From positions 261,082,001 to 261,146,000 of the forward strand of contig CM059425.1 of NCBI GenBank assembly GCA_030390025.1: DNA of 64,000 nt, read 5' to 3'. Position numbers and translations under genes: made by a program. This stretch comes from Squalus acanthias (taxonomy: Eukaryota). A model generated the notes under the pieces. That model was not told the DNA's origin, ran no database searches, and saw only the letters and a program-made list of their open reading frames with translations. Every line of letters starts with the position of its first letter. Positions within the stretch are counted from its first letter, which is position 1. Positions 385 through 38,425 of the stretch are shown piece by piece.

Positions 385-2246
385 ATACCTGTTCCTCTAT
401 CTCCCCCTGACTGTTTGGGGGCCAAAAGTACACGCCCAGCAAAGTGCTTGCCCCCTTTTTGTTTTTAAGTTCTACCCATGTGGCCTCATTAGAGGAACCT
501 GCTGAGATATCATCCCTCCTTACAGCAGTAATTGACTCCTTGATTAATATTGCGACACACCCTCCTCTTTTACACCCCCCTCTGTCTCGCCTGAAGATTC
601 TATACCCCGGAATATTGAGCTGCCAGTCCTGCCCCTCCCTCAACCACGTCTCTGTGATAGCAACAATATCATACTCCCATATGTTCATCAACAATTCAAT
701 TCATCTGCCTTACTCGCAAGACTCCTTGCATTAAAATAAATGCCATCCAGCCTTGCCATACTCCCTTGTGCCGTTACATATTTGCTCTGCCTTCCAGGCT
801 GACTTGTTTTTTCCTCTATATTTGGCTGTGCAACACCCCCTACTATAGCTCCACTCCGTATCCCATCCCCCTGCCAAGTTAGTTTAAACACCCCCCAACA
901 GTACTAGCAAACCTCCCCGCAAGGATGTTGGTCCCGTTCCGGTTCAGGTGCAAACCGTCTGACTTGTACAGGTCCCACCTTCCCCAGAAGCAGACCCAGT
1001 GATCCAGGAAACTAAAGCCCTCCCTCCTGCACCAACTCTTTAGCCACGCATTCATCTGCTCTATCCTCCTATTCCTATACTCACTAGCACGTGGCACCGG
1101 GAGTAATCCAGAGATTACAACCTTTGAGGTCCTACTTTTTATTCTGCTACCTAGCTCCCTAAATTCTTGTTGCAGGACCTCATCCCTCTTTCTACCCATG
1201 TCGTTGGTACCAATGTGAACCACGACCTCTGACTGTTCGCCCTCCCCCTTCAGAATGCCCTGCAGCCGTTCAGTGACATCCTTGACCCTGGCACCAGGGT
1301 GGCAACATATCATCCTGGAGTCACGTCTGCGGCCACAGAAACGTCTATCTGTTCCCCTTACGATAGAATTCCCTATCACTATTGCTCTCCCATTCTTTTT
1401 CCTCCCCTCCTGTGCAGCTGAGCCACGTGTAGTGCCATGGGCTTGGCTCTTGCTGCATTCCCCATCAGTGTCCAAAACGTAAAATCTGTTGGAGAGGGAG
1501 ATGGACCCAGGGAACTCCTGCACTACCTTCCTAGTTCTTTTACTCTGTCTGGCGGTCACCCATTCCCTGTCTGCCTGTGCACTCTTTATCTGTGGTGTGA
1601 CCTCGTTAAACATGCTATCCACGAAGATCTCAGCTTTGCGGATGCTCCACAGTGACTCCAGCCGCAGCTCCAGCTCCGAAATGCAGATTTCGAGTAGCTG
1701 CAGCTGGAGACACTTCCTGCACATGTGTTCACCCTGGACACTGAAAGTGTCCCTGACTTCCCACATAGCACAGGAGGAGCACTCCACGCAGCCGAGCTGC
1801 CTTGCCATGTCCTACCCTTAATTTACTACCTTTACTTCCTTTAAATTAAAGAATATTAAATACACTAGGGACCTTACTTCCCTTTAAACACTACTTACTC
1901 TAAACTAGAGACCTTACTTTTACTTCAACGACTGGACTGTAGAAATACTCACCAGATCCTACTTACCAATCAGCTCCTTCCCTGGTTGTGACGTCACTTT
2001 AGCGGTTTCGCAGTTGTTGTTGTTTGACTGCTTCCGCTCTCGGACTCTTTCCTTGGTGTAAAGTAAGAACCAATTCCCAACTCGCAGCACTCTGTTTAAA
2101 CCGCACTCAGGGCTCCACCCAGGGCCGCTCTCGCTGCAGCTACCGCCGGTGAGTCTGGGCCGCTCTCTCTCTCCCCCGCTCTTTAAATCCTCGGTCTCTG
2201 CGCTCGGTCTCCACCCAGGGCTGCTCTCGCTGCAGCTACCGCCGGG
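385..2246 (-). mobile_element. CR1 LINE, 5' half (5' UTR, ORF1, start of ORF2 endonuclease)
   Basis: ORF1 879-1808; APE motifs YFNARS and YDIVAITETWL at 332-760; GC-rich 5' UTR with a duplicated ~35-bp unit (about 2114-2148 and 2209-2246). Confidence 0.92.
879..1808 (-). CDS. CR1 ORF1p: CxxC..CxxC zinc finger, coiled coil, SGNH esterase; intact 309 aa
   Basis: CSSC/CRKC, heptad LQLLEICISELELRLESL, IGNSIVR (GDS block with D>N), HIGTND, DGLHL. Confidence 0.88.
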   Translation of the reverse strand: MARQLGCVECSSCAMWEVRDTFSVQGEHMCRKCLQLQLLEICISELELRLESLWSIRKAEIFVDSMFNEVTPQIKSAQADREWVTARQSKRTRKVVQEFPGSISLSNRFYVLDTDGECSKSQAHGTTRGSAAQEGRKKNGRAIVIGNSIVRGTDRRFCGRRRDSRMICCHPGARVKDVTERLQGILKGEGEQSEVVVHIGTNDMGRKRDEVLQQEFRELGSRIKSRTSKVVISGLLPVPRASEYRNRRIEQMNAWLKSWCRREGFSFLDHWVCFWGRWDLYKSDGLHLNRNGTNILAGRFASTVGGCLN

Positions 2247-5385: not shown

Positions 5386-6875
5386 GGAATTCTTCCTCCT
5401 CTTCTTTATCCTCCTCCACCTCAGCTGGTCGCCGTATGCCTGGTGGCAAGGGCTGTGCCCTCATGATGGTGAGGTTGAGGTGCATGCACGACGCATCTTG
5501 AGACGCTTTCTGGTGAGTACTGCAGGGCTCCTCCAGAGCGATCCAGGCAGCGGAAGAGCTGTTTAAGCACGCCAATGGTCTCTTCTATCAGATTTCGTGC
5601 AGCAGCATAGCTGTCATTGAACACATGCTGGCTACGTGTGGTTGGGTTGTGAAGCGGAGTCATGAGCCATCCTCTGGTTTGTCTTGGTGGCTCAATGACT
5701 GAGGGAACAGCGGACTGGTGCAGAATAAAAGCATCATTTCTGTTGCCAGGACACCGGGTATTCACTATCATGATATCTGGAGCATGGTCACACACCAACT
5801 GAACATTCAGCGAGTGATAACCTTTGCGGTTGCGGTACATCTCAACATTTAGATGCGGCACCTGCAAAGCCACGCACGTGCAGTCGATGGTGCCCTGCAC
5901 CATGGGGAAGCCCAGTATCCTGGCAAAGCCACGTGTACATTCCGCCTGCTTCTCTCTGGTCAGAGAAAGACAATGAAGTCCCCTCTCCTGGCATAAAGAG
6001 CGTCTGTCACCTCTCTTATGCAGCAGTGGACGGTGAACTGGGAGATATTACAGATGTCGCCTGCTCCAGCCTGGAAGGATCCCAATGCAAGGAAGTTCAG
6101 GGCCACGGTCACCTTCACTGCCACTGCCAGCGCTGTCCCTGCCCTGGAGTGAGGCTGGAGGTCTGGTTGTAAGATGTGGAAGAGTTCTGTGAGCACCTCC
6201 TTCATATTGCGCAGATGCCTCACACACTGCTCCTTGCTCAGGCTGAGGTAAGAGAATTGCTCTCGGAATACCCTAGGTGGATAAGCCTCCTGCTGAGAGC
6301 CCTTCTCCCCCTCCTCCTCCTCCCTCTACAAGCAACTTGTCCTCTTCTTTGCTGCCTTTGCTCTATCTCCCTGTCATGCTGCAGGCCAAGGGTGATGACA
6401 GCTAGAGCACCCATGACTGGGAGCAAGTGGTCTGACCAGAACTCTTGAAGTCAGAATGAAGGCCTTCTCCACTTGCAGCACCACTCCCTGTCACCTCACC
6501 AACTTTAAACAACTCTGGAAAGCTCCAAAACTTCCACAAACTTATACAGTCTGTAGAAATTAATCAGCAACTAATCTGAGAGTGGTTGATGATCCCTTTA
6601 AAAATCACTGGTAGGGGGTCCTTGCTGCTGCTGAACACAGGGCGTTACTTCCAGCGTTGAGGACGAAAATGGCAGCGCTGGCGTCAAATCAGCATTGCAC
6701 GCTGAATGATGTCGCGATCTGCCTACTCTACATACTTCTGGCACATGTTCCCAGCGTCGATGCCAACACCCTCACCAAGGTTGCGTTTGGCGCGCCATGC
6801 ACCAGAAGTGTTTGCGGGCAGCGCGGACGCCATTTTTGTCACAAAACGGCACCCGGGAGCCAAATTTTTTGCCCC
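5385..6875 (-). mobile_element. PIF/Harbinger transposon with a decayed HARBI1-like DDE transposase
   Basis: VKVTVALNFLALGSFQ, GTIDCT, NRKGYHSLNVQLVCD, RNLIEETIGVLKQLFRCL across frameshifted ORFs; terminus GGGGCAAAAAATT at about 6875 abuts a CR1. Confidence 0.85.
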
Positions 6876-10680: not shown

Positions 10681-11649
10681 TCTCCTTTTCTACTTAACAT
10701 AAATGTTCTTCCTGTTACCTACTAAACTCACTTTCGCGGGCTTTTGTTTACAGAGGCTGGTGTCGGGGGCGGAGAGAGCCGAGGCCCAGTGAGTATCTAA
10801 ACTCACTTTCGCGGGCTTTTGTTTGCAGAGGTTTACCAATCTCAGACCGGCGGCGGCGTTCCAGAGCCATGTTACGATTCAAAACGTGACGTGGGCAGGA
10901 GGGACCTGCTGATTGGGTGAGTACGGCAGGTTAGTATTTATACTACTTTATAGTTTGATAGTTAAGGTTCATAGTTTATAAAGTTTCGAAGATCTTAATT
11001 TTGTGATTATAATTTCTAGTGCTCGTAACCAAGGGCCCTTGAGTAATTCATTTAATTGAGTGAAATTGGTGGTATTGATTTGATTTAATTAAAGTTCAAT
11101 TAATTAAAGGGTAAGTCATGGCAGGACAGCCCAGCCCCGTGTTGTGCTCCTCCTGCTCTATGTGGGAAATCAGGGACCCTTCCGGTGTCCCTGACGACCA
11201 TGTGTGCGGGAAGTGTATCCAGCTGCAGCTACTGACAGCCCGCATTGTGGCGCTGGAGCTGCGGCTGGATGCATATTGGAGCATTCGCGATGCTGAGAAC
11301 CTCGTGGATAGCACGTTTAGTGAGTTGGTCACACCGCAGGTGAAGGGTGTACAGGCAGGAAGGGAATGGGTGTCCACCAGGCAGAGTAGGAGGTGCAGGC
11401 AGGTAGTGCAGGGGTCCCCTGTGGCCATCCCCCTCTCAAACAGATATACCGCTTTGGATACTGTTTGGGGGGGATGACTTAGGGGAAGGCAGCAGCAGCC
11501 AACTTCCTGGCACCATGGGCGGCTCTGCTGCACAGGCTGGGAGGAAAAAGAGTGGAAGAGCTATAGTGATAGGGGACTCAATTGTAAGGGGAATACAAAA
11601 ATGAGAAGTCGCACAACACCAGGTTATAGTCCAACAGATTTATTTAATT

Positions 11650-11688
11650 TTACAAGCTTTCGGAGCAGTTCGCTCCTTCGTCAGGTAA
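11650..11688 (-). ncRNA. Minimal hammerhead ribozyme, inverted copy
   Basis: Exact reverse complement of 12456-12494. Confidence 0.72.
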
Positions 11689-12455
11689 GTTTAGCAGTGA
11701 GAGAATCTCCCAGAATTCACAATTTAAACACAGACAAAATATATTCAAATCTTTCCCTACATCAAAGAGCATAGTCAAGACAATGAGATGTGTCCCAGGG
11801 GGTCCAACGTGTCAAACCACCTGCTGGCTGCATATCCTGTCAATCTGTGTAGGTTCTTGTGTTAGCCTTTTTTAAAAAAAAACACCTGGGAAGACCGGCC
11901 ATGATGTCAAGTCACGTTCTGTATCGTGACATGAACCCGATAACGCGATTGAGGCCATCCTCATGAGTGCGGAACTTGGCTATCAGTTTCTGCTCTATGA
12001 TTTTGCGCTGTCGTGTATCTCGAAGGCCGCCTTGGAGAACGCTTACCCGCATATCCGAGGCTTCAGCAGCCAGGGGCATTCAGCCTCGGATATGCGGGTA
12101 AGCGTTCTCCAAGGCGGCCTTCGAGATACACGACAGCGCAAAATCATAGAGCAGAAACTGATAGCCAAGTTCCGCACTCATGAGGATGGCCTCAATCGCG
12201 ATATCGGGTTCATGTCACGATACAGAACGTGACTTGACATCATGGCCGGTCTTCCCAGGTGTTTTTTTTAAAAAAAGGCTAACACAAGAACCTACACAGA
12301 TTGACAGGTTATGCAGCCAGCAGGTGGTTTGACACGTTGGACCCCCTGGGACACATCTCATTGTCTTGACTATGCTCTTTGATGTAGGGAAAGATTTGAA
12401 TATATTTTGTCTGTGTTTAAATTGTGAATTCTGGGAGATTCTCTCACTGCTAAAC

Positions 12456-12494
12456 TTACCTGACGAAGGAGCGAACTGCTCCGAAAGCTTGTAA
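12456..12494 (+). ncRNA. Minimal type I hammerhead ribozyme (Penelope pLTR)
   Basis: TTAC-CTGACGA-A-GGAGC-gaact-GCTCC-GAAA-GCTT-GTAA: CUGANGA and GAAA cores, 5-bp helix II, palindromic AAGCTT helix III, helix I UUAC/GUAA. Confidence 0.75.
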
Positions 12495-15400
12495 AATTAA
12501 ATAAATCTGTTGGACTATAACCTGGTGTTGTGCGACTTCTCATTTTTGTCCACCCCAGTCCAACGCCGGCATCTCCATGTAAGGGGAATAGATAGGCGTT
12601 TCTGCGGCCGCAACCGAGACTCCAGGATGGTGTGTTGCCTCCCTGGTGCAAGGGTCAAGGACGTCTCGGAGCGGCTACAGAACATTTTGGAGGGGGAGGG
12701 CGAACAGCCAGCTGTCGTGGTGCACATAGGCACCAACGATATAGGTAAAAAAGGGGATGAGGTCCTAAAAGCAGAATATAGGGAGTTAGGAGTTAAATTA
12801 AAAAAGAGGACCTCAAAGGTAGTAATCTCAGGATTGCTACCAGTGCCACGTGCTAGTCCGAGTAGAAATAGGAGGATACTTCAAATGAATACGTGGCTAG
12901 AGGAATGGTGCAAGGGGGAGGGATTCAAATTCCTGGGACATTGGAACCGGTTCTGGGGGAGGTGGGACCAGTACAAACCGGACGGTCTGCACCTGGGCAG
13001 GGCCGGGACCGCTGTCCTAGGGGGAATGTTTGCTAGTGCTGTTGGGGAGGATTTAAACTAATGTGGCAGGGGGTTGGGAACCTGAGCAGAGAGACAGAGG
13101 AAAGCATGTCAGGAAGGGACAGAAGGTATGGAGTAAAAGGTAAAGTGTTAAATAAGGAAAAAGCAGGAAGTAAGTGTCGCAAAACACATTTGAAAGTTCT
13201 ATATCTGAATGCACGTAGCATTCGTAACAAAATTGACGAGTTAACGGCACAAATAACTATGTATGGGTATGATCTTGTGGCCATTACAGAAACATGGCTG
13301 CAGGGTGAAAACGTCTGGGAATTAAATATGCCAGGGTATTTAACAATCAGGAAGGACAGGCAGGAAGGAAGGGGAGGGGGGGTGGCTATGTTAATAAAGG
13401 AAGGAATCACTGTAATACAGAGAAATGATATAGGGTCAAAAGATCAGGATAATGAAACAGTTTGGGTAGAGATTAGGAATAATAAGGGGAAAAAACACTG
13501 GTGGGCGTAGTATATAGGCCTCCTAATAGTTGCAACTCTGTTGGAAGAAGTATTAATCAGGAAATAGTTGGGGCATGTAATAAGGGAACAGCTATAATTA
13601 TGGGGGATTTTAACTATCATATATTAACTGGACAAATCAAATTGGGCAGGGCAGCCTTGAGGAAGAGTTTATTGAGTGTCTTAGGGATGGATTTCTTGAG
13701 CAGTATGTAACTGATCCTACAAGGGGGCAAGCAACCTTGGACCTGGTACTGTGTAATGAGTCTGGATTAATTAATAATGTCCTAGTTAAGGATCCCCTTG
13801 GAATGAGTGACCATAACATGGTTGAATTCCATATCCAATTAGAGGGTGAGAAGGTTGGTTCTCAAACAAGCATACAGAGCTTGAATAAAGGAGACTGATG
13901 GCATGAGAGCAGAATTGATTAAAGTGGACTGGGAAAATAGATTAAAGGGTAAGACGGTACATGAGCAGTGGTGTTCATTCAAGGAGTTATTTTACAACTT
14001 TCAAAATAAATATATTCCACTGAGGAAAAAAGGGTGTAAAAGAAATTACAGCCATCCATGGCTAAGTAAAGAAATTAAAGAAAGTATCCAACTAAAAACA
14101 AGGACATATAAGGTAGCCAAAGTTAGTGGGAGGATAGAAGATTGGGAAGTCTTCAAAAGACAACAAAAAGTAACTAAAGGATTGATTAAGAAAGGGAAAA
14201 TAGACTATGAAAATAAATTAGCAAAAAATATAAAAACAGATAGCAAGAGTTTCTATAGTTATATAAAAAGAAAAAGGGTGGTTAAGGCAAACGTAGGTCC
14301 CTTAGACGATGAGACCTGGAAATTAATGGTGGGAAACATGGAGATGGCAAAAATGCTGAACAAATATTTTGTTTCAGTCTTTACGGTAGAGAACACTAAG
14401 AATATCCCAACACTGGACAAACAGGGGGCTCTAGTGGGGGAGGAGCTAAATACGATTAAAATCACAAAGGAATTGGTACTCAGTAAAATAATGGGACTCA
14501 AGGCGGATAAATCACCTGGACTTGATGGCTTACATCCTAGGGTCTTGAGGGAAGTGGCAGTAGGAATTGTGGATGCTTTGCTAATAATTTTCCAAATCTC
14601 CCTGAACTCAGCAAAGGTCCCGGCAGATTGGAAAACTGCTAATGTAACACCCTTATTTAAAAAGGGTTGTAGGCAGAAGGCTGGGAATTATAGACCAGTT
14701 AGCCTAACATCTGTGGTGGGTAAAATTTTGGAGTCTATTATTAAGGAGACAGTAATGGAACATTTAGATAAACATAATTTAATAGGACAAAGTCAGCATG
14801 GCTTTATGAAGGGGAAGTCATGTCTGACAAATTTGCTCGAGTTCTTTGAGGACATAACGCACAGGGTGGATAAAGGGGAACCAGTGGATGTAGTGTATTT
14901 AGACTTCCAGAAGGCATTTGACAAGGTGCCACATAAAAGATTATTACTCAAGATAAAAAATCACTGGATTGGGGGTAATATTCTGGCATGGGTGGAGGAT
15001 TGGTTATCTAACAGGAAGCAGAGAGTTGGGATAAATGGTTCATTCTCGGACTGGCAACCAGTAGCCAGTGGTGTTCCGCAGGGGTCGGTGCTGGGTCCCC
15101 AACTCTTTACAATCTATATTAACGATTTGGAGGAGGGGACCGAGTGTAACATATCAAAGTTTGCTGATGATACAAAGATGGGAGGGAAAGTAGAGAGTGA
15201 GGAGGACATAAAAAACCTACAAGGGCCATATAGACAGGCTGGGTGAGTGGGCAGAGATTTGGCAGATGCAATACAATATTGGAAAATGTGAGGTTATGCA
15301 CTTTGGCAGGAAAAATCAGAGAGCAAGTTATTATCTTAATGGCGAGAAACTGGAAAGTACTGCAGTACAAAGGGATCTGGGGGTCTTGGTGCAAGAAAAT

Positions 15401-16332
15401 CAAAAAGTTAGTATGCAGGTGCAGCAGGTGATCAAGAAAGCCAATGGAATGTTGGCTTTTATTGCTAGGGGGATAGAATATAAAAACAGGGAGGTATTGC
15501 TGCAGTTGTATAGGGTATTGGTGAGACCACATCTGGAGTACTGCATACAGTTTTGGTGTCCATACTTAAGAAAAGACATACTTGCTCTCGAGGCAGTACA
15601 AAGAAGGTTCACTCGGTTAATTCCGGGGATGAGGGAGTGGACATACGAGGAGAGGTTGAGTAGATTGGGACTCTACTCATTGGAGTTCAGAAGAATGAGA
15701 GGCGATCTTATTGAAACATATAAGATTGTGAAGGGGCTTGATCGGGTGGACGCGGTGAGGATGTTCCCAATGATGGGTGAAACTAGAACTAGGGGACAGA
15801 ATCTTAGAATAAGGGGCTCCTCTTTCAAAACTGAGATGAGGAGAAACTTTTTCACTCAGAGGGTAGTGGGTCTGTGGAATTTGCTACCCCAGGAAGCTGT
15901 GGAAGCTACATCATTAAATAAATTTAAAACAGAAATAGACCGTTTCCTAGAAGTAAAGGGAATCAGGGGTTACGGGGAGCGGGCTGGAAATTGGACATGA
16001 GTTTGAGTTCGGATCGTTCAAGGCCCTGTGGGTGGCAGAGCGGGCCCAGGGGCCGAGTGGCCTGGTCCTTCTCCTGCTTCTTGTGTTCTTTAGAGTTGAG
16101 GTTGGATCAGATCAGCCATGATCTCATTGAATGGCGGAGCAGGCTCGAGGGGCCGATTGGTCTACTCCTGCTCCTATTTCTTATGTTGTTATGTTCTTAA
16201 ATTCAGTGAGATTGATCAACAGTTTTCGCGGGTTCCACAGGAACTGAAGAAACACTTCGAGCAACTTCTGTATTTCGGTGTCAAGAGACAAAAAGCAGCG
16301 AGGGAGAAGGACGGAACACCGAAGATCTGGCG

Positions 16333-18790: not shown

Positions 18791-18947
18791 CACTGTCCGA
18801 TGTCGATGTGTAAACCATCCCAATCTGGCCGTGTGATGTTATATCTGTTGTCACTATATCACAGACTCAGTATATTGTCAGGCAGTGTGTTTTTGAAACA
18901 CTGATGTCTGCCCCCGTGCTGTTCTAATGTTGTCTCTCGCCCCACAG

Positions 18948-19346
18948 AGTTTTCTCGTAATGGTTGGACAATGAGCGGCGCGGATGCAGTGACTGCTGAG
19001 GAAGGGGGGTCCGCTGTCTTGCCGTGCAGTTTCACCCACCCATACCCTGATCGCACGCTCACCGGCAATGTGATATGGATCAAAGATGACCCGGGGTTTT
19101 ACAGGGTTATTTTTAACTGGACATATTCTGGTCAGGGCCATTCACGGGCCGAGCTGTGTGAAAGTGTGATACAGCAGGACGGCGGGAATCGATTCAGATT
19201 CGTGGGGAACCTCAGCAACAAGGATGTCTCGATAATGATGGAGCGGCTGAGCCCGGCGGACAGCGGTGATTATCGGTGTCGGGTGGAGCTCATTTTTGGC
19301 AGTTTTAATACACCGCGGACAACGAGTCTGAGTCTGAGTGTGAGAG
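18948..19346 (+). CDS. Siglec-15-like receptor, V-set Ig domain 1 exon
   Basis: Acceptor ..cccacag, donor GTGAGG, phase 1/1; WTM..VTAEEGGSAVLPCSFTHP..W..ELCES..RFRFVGN..DVSIMMERL..DSGDYRCRVE closely matches the Siglec-15 V domain, including the sialic-acid-binding Arg in CRVE. Confidence 0.88.
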
Positions 19347-19374
19347 GTGAGGAACAATGTTCAGGGGCTGGAGC

Positions 19375-19625
19375 TGCTCCGATAGCTCAATGGGTAAAGG
19401 CTCCACCTGGTCCGGTCCTGAGCCACACGGATCAATAAACTTTCAGCAGCCCCGGGCTATGAAAGGGGTGGAGGGATATTGGCCGGGGTTCCTGCTCCTG
19501 ATCACGCTCCAGTGACTCCTGCTGGAAGCTGTGTTCTTGGACATTGGGCCTGCCTGTGATGCTTTCCACAGTCAAATAGTCCATTGCCACTCATTGACCA
19601 GCCTTGTGCTCTGAGGAAGGCCACA
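19375..19625 (+). mobile_element. Old tRNA-derived SINE
   Basis: Head CCGATAGCTCAATGGGTAA; an inverted homolog lies at about 22050-22340. Confidence 0.55.
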
Positions 19626-19702
19626 GGGAGAGCTCTGAACTAAAATAAATTAAACGTTCTCATCAAGACACTGACTCATTCTGATGTTTGTCCTTTCCTC
19701 AG

Positions 19703-20056
19703 CTGCTAGTGGAAGTGTCTCAGTGGTGAGTGGGACCGAGGGAGCTTCGGTTACACTGCCCTGTATGTTCACAAGGTCCAGCGACTACACCACCCTGAGC
19801 ACTGTTACATGGATGAGGAAGGAGCCCTACCAACACGTAGTCACATTTACAGCCCAATCAAACGGATCTTGGACAACTGTAAACGGTGGAAATCGGTACG
19901 AGCTAGTCGGGAAACCAAAGGAGGGAAACGCCTCAACCAGGATAAACCAGCTGAGCGTGAAGGACAGCCACACTTACCTGTGTCTGGTGGAGTACAAGAA
20001 ATTGCACAATTATCAACATCTGATCCAGAATGAGACACGGCTGGAGGTGATACATG
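19703..20056 (+). CDS. Siglec-15-like receptor, second V-type Ig domain exon
   Basis: Acceptor tcctttcctcag, donor GTAAGA, phase 1/1; VSGTEGASVTLPCMF..VTW..RYELVG..NASTRINQL..DSHTYLCLVE..ETRLEV. Confidence 0.85.
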
Positions 20057-20134
20057 GTAAGAAGCCATTCCCACATTCTCCAGTGTATCGAGGTTGTACA
20101 GTGAGGAGCCAGCGGTGTAACAGAAAACACTCAT

Positions 20135-20997
20135 CAGCCTGGCTCAGTGGGTAGCACTCTCGCCTCTGAGTCAAAAGGTCGAGTTGTCACATCTCACTCC
20201 AGACACTTGACTATAATCTAGGCTGGCATTCCCGGTGCAGTACTGACGTTTTTCAGATGAGACGTTAAAACAGGGCCCCATCTGCCCCCTCAGGTGGATG
20301 TAAAAGATCCCACTGCACTATTCTGAAGAGCAGTGAGTGCTCCCCGGTGTCCTGGCCAGCATTTATCCCTCAAAAAAAAGTAAAAAAGAGATTATCTGCT
20401 CATTTATCACATTAGTGTTTGTGGGAGCTTGCTGTGCGCAAATTGGTGCCCTACATCAAAACAGTGACTAAAAGAAAGACTTGCATTTCTATAGCACCTT
20501 TCATGACCACCAGACGTCCCAAAGCGCTTTACAGTCAATGAAGTACAGTCACTGTTGTAATGTGGGAAACGCGGCAGCCAATTTGCGCACAGCAAGCTCC
20601 CACAAACAGCAATGTGAGAATGACCAGATAATCTGTTTTTGTTATGTTGGCCAGGACACCAGGGAAAACTCCCCTGCTCTTCTTCAAAATAGTGCCATGG
20701 GATCTTTTACATCCACCTGAGAGAGCAGACGGGGCCTCGGTTTAACATCTCACCTGAATGACGGCACCTCCGACAGTGCAGCACTCCCTCAGTACCGCAC
20801 TGGAGCGTCAGCCTAGCTTTATGTGCTCAGGTCCCTGGAGTGGGACTTGAACCCACAACCTTCTGACTCAGAGGCGAGTGTGCTACCCACTGAGCCACAG
20901 CTGACTACACTTCAAAAGATACTTCATTGGCTGTAAAGCGCTTTGTGATGTCCCGAGGTTGTGAAAGGCGCTATATAAATGCAAGCACTTCTTTTTC
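20135..20997 (+). mobile_element. SacSINE1/Deu-SINE with a second copy nested in opposite orientation (20471-20901)
   Basis: tRNA-like head TGGCTCAGTGGGTAGCACTCT..GGTTCAAGTCCC, Deu core, L2-type tail; TSD TGACTA (20465-20470, 20902-20907). Confidence 0.85.
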
Positions 20998-25826: not shown

Positions 25827-27915
25827 AGGTAGTAATGCTAGTGAGTACAGATATAGGAGGATAGTGGAGATGAATGCATGGCTGGAGAGATGGTGCAGGA
25901 GGGAGGGCTTTAGATTCCTGAGGCATTGGGACCGTGTCTGGGGGAGATGGGACCTGTGCAAGCCGGACGGGTTGCACCTCAACAGGACCAGGACCAATAT
26001 CCTCGCGGGGGGGATTGCTAGTGCTGTTGGGGAGGGTTTAAATTAGCTTGGCAGGGGGATGGGAACCTGAGAGTAGATTCAGAAGGGAGAGAAGCAAAGC
26101 TGGAAATGGAAGGCAGAAAATTAGTAAGCAAGTTTGGAAGGCAGAGGAAACAAAGGCTAGAAAATAGACAACAAGGGAGTTTGGCAGTGCTAAATGGTAT
26201 ATACTTCAACGCAAGGAGTCTGGGGAATAAAGCAGATGAGCTGAGGGCACAGATAGACACGTGGGAGTATGATATTATAGCTATTACTGAGACATGGCTG
26301 AAAGAAGGGCAGGAATGGCAGCTCAACATTCCTGGTTACAGGGTTTTCAGACGAGATAGAGAGGGAGATGAAAAAAGGAGGGAGGAATCACAATATTGAT
26401 TAAAGAAACAATTACAGCTGTGAGGAGGGATGATATCTTAGAAGGATCATCCAACGAGGCCATATGGGTTGAACTGAAAAGCAAAAAAGGGGCAATCACA
26501 CTGCTGGGAGTGTACTATAGACCCCCAAACGGTCAGAGAGAGATAGAAGAGCAAATATGTAGGCAAATTTTTGAGACGTGCAAAAATAGGGCAGTAATAG
26601 TAGGGGACTTCAACTTCCCTAATATTAACTGGGATAAAATTAGTGTGAAAGGTATAGAGGGAGCAGAATTCTTAAAATGCATTCAGGAGAACATTTTTAG
26701 CCAGTACGTAGCAAGCCCAACAAGAGAGGGGGCGGTTCTGGACCTAGTTTTAGGGAATGAAGCTGGGCAGGTGGAAAGGGTATCAGTGGGAGAGCATATT
26801 GGTGGTAGTGATCATAATTCAGTTAGATTTAGCATAGTTATGGAAAAGGACAAGGATAGATCAGGAATAAAAGTTCTCAATTGGAGAAAAGCTAATTTTA
26901 CTAAGCTGAGATGTGAGATAGCCAAAGTGGACTGGAGACAGATACTTGGAGGCAAATCAGTGTCAGAGCAGTGGGAGGCATTCAAAGAGGAGATAGTGAG
27001 GGTTCAGAGCAAGTATGTTCCCTTAAAGATAAAGGGTGGGACTAACAAATCTAGAGCTCCCTGGATGTCAAGGGACATACAGGGAAGGATAAAGAAAAAA
27101 GGGAAGCTTATGACAGATACCAAGCGTTCAATACTGCAGAAACCCTAGAGGCGTATAGAAAGTGCAGGGGTGAAATTAAAAAGGAAATTAGGAAAGCAAA
27201 GAGAGGGCATGAAAAAATATTGGCAAGTAAAATCAAGGAAAACCCAAAGATGTTTTATAAATACATTAAGAGCAAGAGGATAACTAAAGTAAGAGTAGGG
27301 CTGATTAGAGACCATAAAGGTAATCTGTGTGTGGAGGCGGAAGACATGGGTATGGTTCTTAAAGAATACTTTGCGTCTGTTTTTACAAAAGAGAGGGATG
27401 ATGCAGAAATTGCAATCAGGGAGGAGCAGTGTGAAATATTAGATGATATAAAAATAGTGAAAGAGGAAGTATTAAGGGATTTAGCATCTTTGAAAGTGGA
27501 TAAATCCCCAGGCCAGGATGAAAGGTATCCCAGACTGTTAAGAGAAGTAAGAGAGGCCCTGATCATCATTTTCCAATCCTCTCTGGCTACAGGTGTGGTG
27601 CCGGAGGACTGGAGGACTGCTAACATGATACCGTTATTTAAAAAGGGAGAAATGGATAGACTGAGTAATTACAGGCCAGTCAGCCTAACCTCAGTGGTGG
27701 GAAAATTATTGGAAAAAATTCTGATGGACAGGATAAATCTTCATTTAGAAAGACACGGATTAATCAGGGACAGTCAGCATGGATTTGTTAAGGAAAGGTC
27801 GTGTCTGACTAACTTGATTGAATTTTTTGAGGAGGTAACAAGGAGGTTCGGTGTAGTCTATATGGATTTTAGCAAGGCATTTGATAAAGTCCCACATGGC
27901 AGACTGGTCACGAAA

Positions 27916-38200: not shown

Positions 38201-38425
38201 TACTATAGCTCCACTCCTTATCCCATCCCCCTGCCAAGTTAGTTTAAACCCCCCTCCCCAACAGTACTAGCAAACCTCCCCGCAAGGATGTTGGTCCCGT
38301 TCCGGTTCGGATGCAACCCGTCCGACTTGTACAGGTCCCATCTTCCCCAGAAGCAGACCCAGTGATCCAGGAAACTAAAGCTTTCCCTCCTGCACCAACT
38401 CTTTAGCCGCGCATTCATCTGCTCT
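35259..38425 (-). mobile_element. CR1 (end of ORF1 plus ORF2) inserted into an older + strand CR1 (34640-39050)
   Basis: 418-aa APE ORF 36863-38119 and RT pieces; TSD ATAGTT (35253-35258, 38426-38431); nearly identical to 385-1060. Confidence 0.9.

Follow-up and report, generated by a model that had tools for sequence, protein, structure and literature searches.

A probable -1 ribosomal frameshift site at the ORF1/ORF2 junction of esterase-type CR1 retrotransposons

Our analysis suggests that CR1 retrotransposons with an esterase-type ORF1 make the product of their second reading frame by -1 ribosomal frameshifting. The reading of the junction sequences that we favor, and to which we give a probability of roughly 0.8, is that a minority of ribosomes slips by -1 at the heptamer T TTA AAC and that an ORF1p-ORF2p fusion would be the result. 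The DNA-cutting enzyme of these elements is likely made by such a slip, because the heptamer is shared and because some intact young families contain no start codon until most of the endonuclease domain has been passed. The slipped ribosomes would read on through ..L-N-L-x.. into ORF2, with ...L-N-L-x-W-Q-G... as the expected transframe product in the clade studied here, and the fusion would carry the endonuclease together with the reverse transcriptase; most ribosomes would stop at the ORF1 stop codon and release free ORF1p. The elements are assigned, as probable members, to CR1 on the grounds of their architecture.

The starting point was a stretch of 64,000 nucleotides from Squalus acanthias, referred to below as the window, in which tblastn located four ends of ORF1 and four starts of the endonuclease, and no more. 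An earlier note on this DNA had claimed that at all four junctions ORF1 ends with T TTA AAY and a stop codon and that ORF2 lies in the -1 frame, and a check of the sequence bore this out. The flagged junction has the heptamer T TTA AAC at 13052..13058 (+), in the ORF1 frame and abutting the stop codon TAA at 13059-13061 (+). The second is T TTA AAT TAG at 26037..26046 (+; heptamer 26037-26043). The third, T TTA AAC TAA at 879..888 (-; heptamer 882-888), closes an ORF1 frame that is open for 310 codons (879-1811), and the fourth, T TTA AAC TAA at 38239..38248 (-; heptamer 38242-38248), has a -1 frame open for 461 codons. At each of the four the -1 frame is open into the endonuclease motif Y[LF]NARS, and the six further TTTAAAN+stop strings of the window do not stand at ORF1 ends. 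The copy at 13052 is the only one with TAATG, and other AUGs are remote, as had also been stated: the first in-frame Met is codon 24 at the 26037 junction and codon 44 at the 882 and 38242 junctions. Contigs from four runs of four other organisms carry variants at window positions 13051 and 13061-13063 and none at 13052-13060 (among 40 of 67 rows), an observation to which we give no weight as evidence. Other features of the window, judged by eye, are a fragment of a Harbinger-like transposase at 5421-6325 (-) and, at 18905-20154 (+), two ORFs that resemble V-type immunoglobulin exons belonging to a host gene.

The flagged element itself is dead, since its ORF1 is split by an insertion and its ORF2 is interrupted by a stop. 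Comparison with sister copies (tblastn and blastn) placed the 5' part of ORF1, with a zinc-finger/coiled-coil start and a frameshift near 11461, at 11118..11595 (+), and the 3' part, an SGNH esterase domain ending ...EDLN (Pfam PF13472, E 1e-12), at 12578..13061 (+). Between them lies a secondary insertion of about 980 bp (11596..12577), missing from the sister copies L002, L011 and L013; within it lie a short ORF (11930-12232), which presumably resembles the end of a Penelope-type element, and, near 12020-12140, an inverted repeat. The -1 frame, shut by a stop five codons upstream of the heptamer, continues through a charged and variable linker of 50 codons (13052..13201, +) into ORF2, which runs from the endonuclease (YLNARS) to the reverse transcriptase (13202..16000, +) and is first interrupted by a stop at codon 153, counted from the heptamer. 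In the sister copy L315, ORF2 is open for 982/982 codons, and the subfamily is young, with at least 29 other loci at 99% identity among the matches listed. The 3' UTR region of the flagged copy (16001..16200, +) consists of two successive tail-like units, and two such units after ORF2 were also observed in L315, L330 and L372. Several junction types have 3' UTR types in common. Compared with L110/L317 over 13052-13500, the flagged subfamily combines an ORF1 tail of the first clade with an endonuclease and a linker end that closely resemble their counterparts in an element of the second clade, so that module swapping in the linker is likely.

Pfam identified the window ORF1 as an SGNH esterase (PF13472, best E-value 5.9e-15, besides the copy named above), the APE endonuclease (PF03372) in two window copies, and both PF03372 and the reverse transcriptase PF00078 in the intact relatives L348 and L341. 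The 3' UTR ends in short tandem repeats and dispersed copies are 5'-truncated. An esterase ORF1, an ORF2 with APE and RT, and a repeat tail are likewise described for canonical vertebrate CR1 in the passages available to us (PMC13343379, PMC4120745, PMC3905857). One CR1-type ORF1 protein, P0011, is 58% identical to that of the window and bears the source label Pseudomonas aeruginosa, which is probably due to host contamination.

One line of evidence comes from silent sites. We gathered 85 distinct ORF1 tails without using the heptamer and sorted them into 27 groups, of which 25 with a 26-codon tail could be aligned; L272 and one window copy, whose tails are one codon longer, were left out. Flank patterns, or resemblance to the window, guided the choice of part of the sample, and many groups consist of a single copy. 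The 85 tails carried TTTAAAC (77), TTTAAAT (3), TTTCAAC (2), GTTAAAC (1), TTTAAAG (1) and TTTAAAA (1). The third base of codon -3 was T in 25/25 groups, with A, G, D, H, S or C as the encoded residue, and the first two bases of this codon changed 4 and 6 times on the tree. The Leu at codon -2 was TTA in 25/25 groups, compared with 9/123 of the upstream Leu codons. Thus the two silent positions of the heptamer showed 0 parsimony changes against 1 to 10 (mean 6.0) at 23 control third positions. The earlier note had proposed looking for conservation at precisely these synonymous sites, and no synonymous variation was found across the 25 lineage groups. As a separate observation, the ORF1 stop was TAA or TAG in 25/25 groups and TGA in 1/85 tails, though TGA would preserve Leu in the -1 frame.

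The same picture was obtained on the genome scale. A pattern that fixed only the flanks matched 10,364 copies at normal spacing, and 8,921 of these have an intact heptamer and stop. Just 135 of the 10,364 still encode Leu-Asn-stop but do not begin the heptamer with T, and the 100 of these that were listed belong to several different subfamily types, the distribution to be expected if copies decayed once inserted. Spacing one base longer (14 nt) occurs in 51 copies; many of them have lengthened runs of T or A inside the heptamer, which suggests slippage of a polymerase or reverse transcriptase on it. A second ORF1 clade of the same genome, 47% identical and represented by 3,864 pattern matches, keeps the heptamer.

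Beyond the shark, 40 loci were found in metagenome contigs and 18 of them were examined. In 9/18, namely L271 and eight others, ORF1 ends in NNT TTA AAC plus stop, and 8/18 are broken or end too early. We take the eight other loci to be amniote- or bird-type. L271 has an ORF1 tail almost identical to a cluster in which some proteins are labelled as sturgeon. The junction of the more distant element L272 reads G TTA AAC TAG. The heptamer is therefore common to shark-like, sturgeon-like and bird-type CR1 copies. One old group of 3 copies, each with a different one-base change in the heptamer, counts against the slip reading.

A further indication is given by the C-termini of ORF1 proteins. We fetched 345 proteins, 277 of which have the esterase motif near the C-terminus; they fall into 84 clusters, which are related to one another, so the following counts should be read with this in mind. 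The C-terminal residue is Asn in 43/84 clusters, and in 38 of these 43 it is preceded by L, G, K or P (background 0.24), the four residues that a codon of the form XXA can encode. The residue before LN is never Q, K, E, M or W, which have no codon ending in T (0/25), and the residue before GN is Q in 9/11; residues with a purine-only third base thus precede 9/11 GN ends and 0/25 LN ends (Fisher p 6e-7). The ORF1 ends LN, QGN and SKN would accordingly match the heptamers T TTA AAC, G GGA AAC and A AAA AAC, the GN and KN heptamers being deduced from protein. All three are among the most shifty heptamers in mammalian ribosomes according to the part of the literature consulted (PMC5009743). Distant LINEs with an esterase do not all have this site, since 41/84 C-terminal clusters do not end in N. 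A search for DNA of a GN-ending family gave nothing relevant in viral contigs and three weak loci without a junction in genome contigs, and a weak search for natural in-frame ORF1-ORF2 fusions among longer proteins found none. Four distant ORF1 proteins (P0110, P0130, P0171 and P0260) end in FFR or FFH, where a U-rich slippery site could be hidden.

A slip at the heptamer requires a fixed frame for ORF2, and the earlier note had pointed to other ORF2 frames as evidence against it. The distance from the stop to the endonuclease is 2 mod 3 in 85/112 distinct copies, and the -1 frame was found in 12/13 multi-copy groups, whose modal lengths range from 128 to 200 nt; it is open in 11/13, the two exceptions being old copies with indels. 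At 46/51 junctions a stop closes the -1 frame 1-7 codons before the heptamer is reached, and a Met within the overlap is found at 0/51. ORF2 is open from the heptamer, the -1 frame is closed just upstream and the overlap holds no Met; therefore the coding region of ORF2 starts at the heptamer. The linker in six copies examined comprises 38-60 charged and variable residues, as would be expected of a tether between domains.

The positions of AUG codons were surveyed in 34 full-length colinear copies. In L347-L349, 983/983 codons counted from the heptamer are open and the first Met is codon 256, and the Pfam endonuclease occupies codons 55-254, i.e. lies before it. The first Met is at codon 167 in L341/L342 and at codon 179 in L354, in all cases beyond the N-terminal NARS motif, and the sturgeon-like L271 has no Met before YLNARS. 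Intact young subfamilies thus reach their first in-frame AUG at codons 167-256, either within the endonuclease domain or beyond it, and since this holds for L347-L349, L341, L342 and L354, no AUG can start ORF2 there. Dependence of ORF2 on a downstream AUG, the other objection that had been raised in advance, is consequently impossible in several intact subfamilies. Some subfamilies, the flagged one included, do carry TAATG and several have an AUG in the linker. An overlapping UAAUG occurs in a minority of subfamilies and is not a conserved stop-start, since there is wide variation in the two to three bases that follow TA.

The main rival reading is that ORF2 is translated by AUG-independent termination-reinitiation as in L1, with ribosomes restarting in the -1 frame beside the ORF1 stop, aided by the G-rich element, and yielding a free ORF2p. 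The absence of an AUG alone does not exclude this, since production of ORF2p from mammalian L1 does not require the ORF2 AUG and any sense codon is tolerated at the L1 ORF2 start, as the parts of PMC1965478 available to us report. The stop always adjoins the heptamer, TAATG is present in some subfamilies, an open linker and a fixed frame are equally expected from reinitiation, and SART1 is described in the passages seen as requiring a downstream element along with an overlapping stop-start (PMC5972666, PMC3708506). However, reinitiation leaves unexplained the invariant wobble T and the TTA upstream of the stop, as well as the LN/QGN/SKN pattern of the proteins. The codon after CTA is free (AAA, AAG, GCT, AGT, ATT, ATG, ACT, ATA and GTT among 100 copies listed), and in several subfamilies the AUG nearest to the stop is in the +1 frame. 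Thus it is unlikely, in our opinion, that reinitiation rather than a slip accounts for ORF2 translation.

As to what would stimulate the slip, the earlier note had suggested a G-rich element and described a 16-mer conserved 5 nt downstream. The 16-mer (13064..13079, +, in the flagged copy) is indeed present at 4/4 window junctions, but the second ORF1 clade and the non-shark loci keep the heptamer without it and have the G-run only. The 16-mer was therefore rejected as a universal stimulator and the suggestion narrowed to the G-run, which in the flagged copy is the G5 at 13069-13073 (heptamer+11), the part common to distant lineages and our candidate. A run of at least four G starting 8-11 nt after the heptamer is present in 25/27 groups and is the only general downstream feature. 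The classical arrangement, a 3' stem-loop or pseudoknot 5-9 nt downstream, was not supported either: in nested folds, 9/10 windows of downstream sequence were no better than shuffles (z -0.39 to +1.04; one at -2.50), and Rfam gave no match at the junction. In 15/18 junction types the G4Hunter score exceeds the 96th percentile for the element, and the canonical four-tract quadruplex pattern is found in just 3/18. Pairing with the 3' UTR was evaluated in 34 of 51 colinear full-length copies representing 18 junction types. The own 3' UTR is often among the best partners, yet it is no better than the UTRs of other subfamilies (mean difference -0.09 kcal/mol, permutation p 0.39), and no covariation between junction and 3' UTR was seen in this set. 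At one umbravirus frameshift site, the proximity of a stop codon is reported to be important (PMC5009743, in part). It could be that the proposed frameshift in CR1 is stimulated by the adjacent stop and a bound G-run: slow termination and an unstructured G-run, probably covered by a protein, would create the pause, rather than a local hairpin or pseudoknot.

The 5' ends of truncated copies tend to fall at the junction. Of 70 copies chosen by the endonuclease motif only (L201-L270), 17 have their start between -24 and +22 nt relative to the heptamer and 26 between -850 and -31; another 17 start farther upstream and 10 start downstream, four of the last being placed there for lack of a reference. 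This gives 17/60 ends at the junction against 3.7 expected from the upstream rate (p 7.5e-8), for an interval that was set with the data already in view. A second sample, chosen by downstream sequence (L376-L459), gave 7/64 against 2.1 expected (p 0.005), and 3/29 against 1.7 in the window's own subfamily, which is not significant (p 0.23). Inspection of wider flanks attributed 1/17 junction ends to a secondary insertion; for several others the flanks, judged by eye, continue across the element. Most truncated ends keep the G-run, which would be less well explained by stalling of the reverse transcriptase at the G-run than by RNA 5' ends made where a ribosome has stalled or is terminating. We tentatively propose, at somewhat less than even odds, that the same ribosome roadblock has left a fossil record as a genomic 5'-truncation hotspot; microhomology or internal starts may instead be the source of such a cluster.

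This clustering (17/60) also bears on the notion that the conserved bases are an RNA or DNA signal unrelated to decoding, such as an internal promoter, an RNA cleavage site or a splice signal, which would give rise to a separate ORF2 RNA. We take TTTAAA to be TATA-like and AACTAAC to be branch-point-like, and count both resemblances in its favor. Nevertheless, the ends scatter from -24 to +22 instead of falling at one base, the motif is always in ORF1 phase, and the switch to QGN at the protein level fits slipperiness and not a fixed motif. Moreover, an RNA with ORF2 only would have no AUG before the endonuclease in the L347 and L341 subfamilies, so we regard such a signal as very improbable. 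Least credible of all is a protein constraint on the C-terminal Leu-Asn combined with shared ancestry and an ORF2 started from a downstream AUG: Leu-Asn is invariant in an alignment of 21 ORF1 sequences and a linker AUG exists in several subfamilies, but the synonymous positions do not vary although the codons beside them do, and intact copies have their first AUG past the endonuclease domain.

The proposed -1 slip at T TTA AAC has counterparts in other systems, which we compared as far as the cited sources were accessible to us in part. The IBV site U_UUA_AAC, at the ORF1a/1b junction of nidoviruses, is the same heptamer, and G_UU(A) of equine arteritis virus is the variant of L272 (PMC5009743). 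CR1 differs from them in having no predicted downstream hairpin or pseudoknot and in having the stop directly adjacent. The protein-stimulated -1/-2 site of arterivirus nsp2 uses an unstructured C-rich motif 11 nt downstream (PMC7939443), a spacing close to that of the CR1 G-run at +8 to +11; the nsp2 motif is C-rich and protein-bound, that of CR1 is G-rich and its binding protein hypothetical. L1 and SART1 are, like CR1, bicistronic LINE RNAs with ORF2 translated beside the ORF1 stop, but they yield a separate ORF2p, and SART1 uses a UAAUG stop-start that most CR1 subfamilies analysed here are without. Among APE-type non-LTR elements, TRE5-A and TRE3-A of Dictyostelium need a -1 frameshift for ORF2 according to a figure legend (PMC5911963); they belong to a different clade and have a different type of ORF1.

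How LINE ORF2 is translated is described as an open question in the parts of PMC5009743 and PMC1965478 that we consulted. The word frameshift is absent from the main text of PMC13343379, PMC4120745, PMC3905857 and PMC4316615 and from the accessible text of bioRxiv 10.64898/2026.01.13.699120, a preprint whose journal version is among these papers, and the relevant passages of the first three leave the mode of ORF2 translation unstated. CR1 goes unmentioned in the portion seen of a review on frameshifting. We found no report of frameshifting in CR1 in the literature searched; the original CR1 descriptions, which lie beyond that search, may mention an overlap or a frameshift.

Elements of the CR1 group are the dominant retrotransposons of most vertebrates and make up 22-34% of shark and ray genomes, as stated in the available part of bioRxiv 10.64898/2026.01.13.699120. 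If the -1 slip indeed takes place, the enzyme that replicates CR1 would be an ORF1p fusion made at a fixed ratio, and the annotated starts of ORF2 would be wrong. It would also follow that a -1 site does not always need a local RNA fold to function, and the candidate site in CR1 is about 30 nt long.
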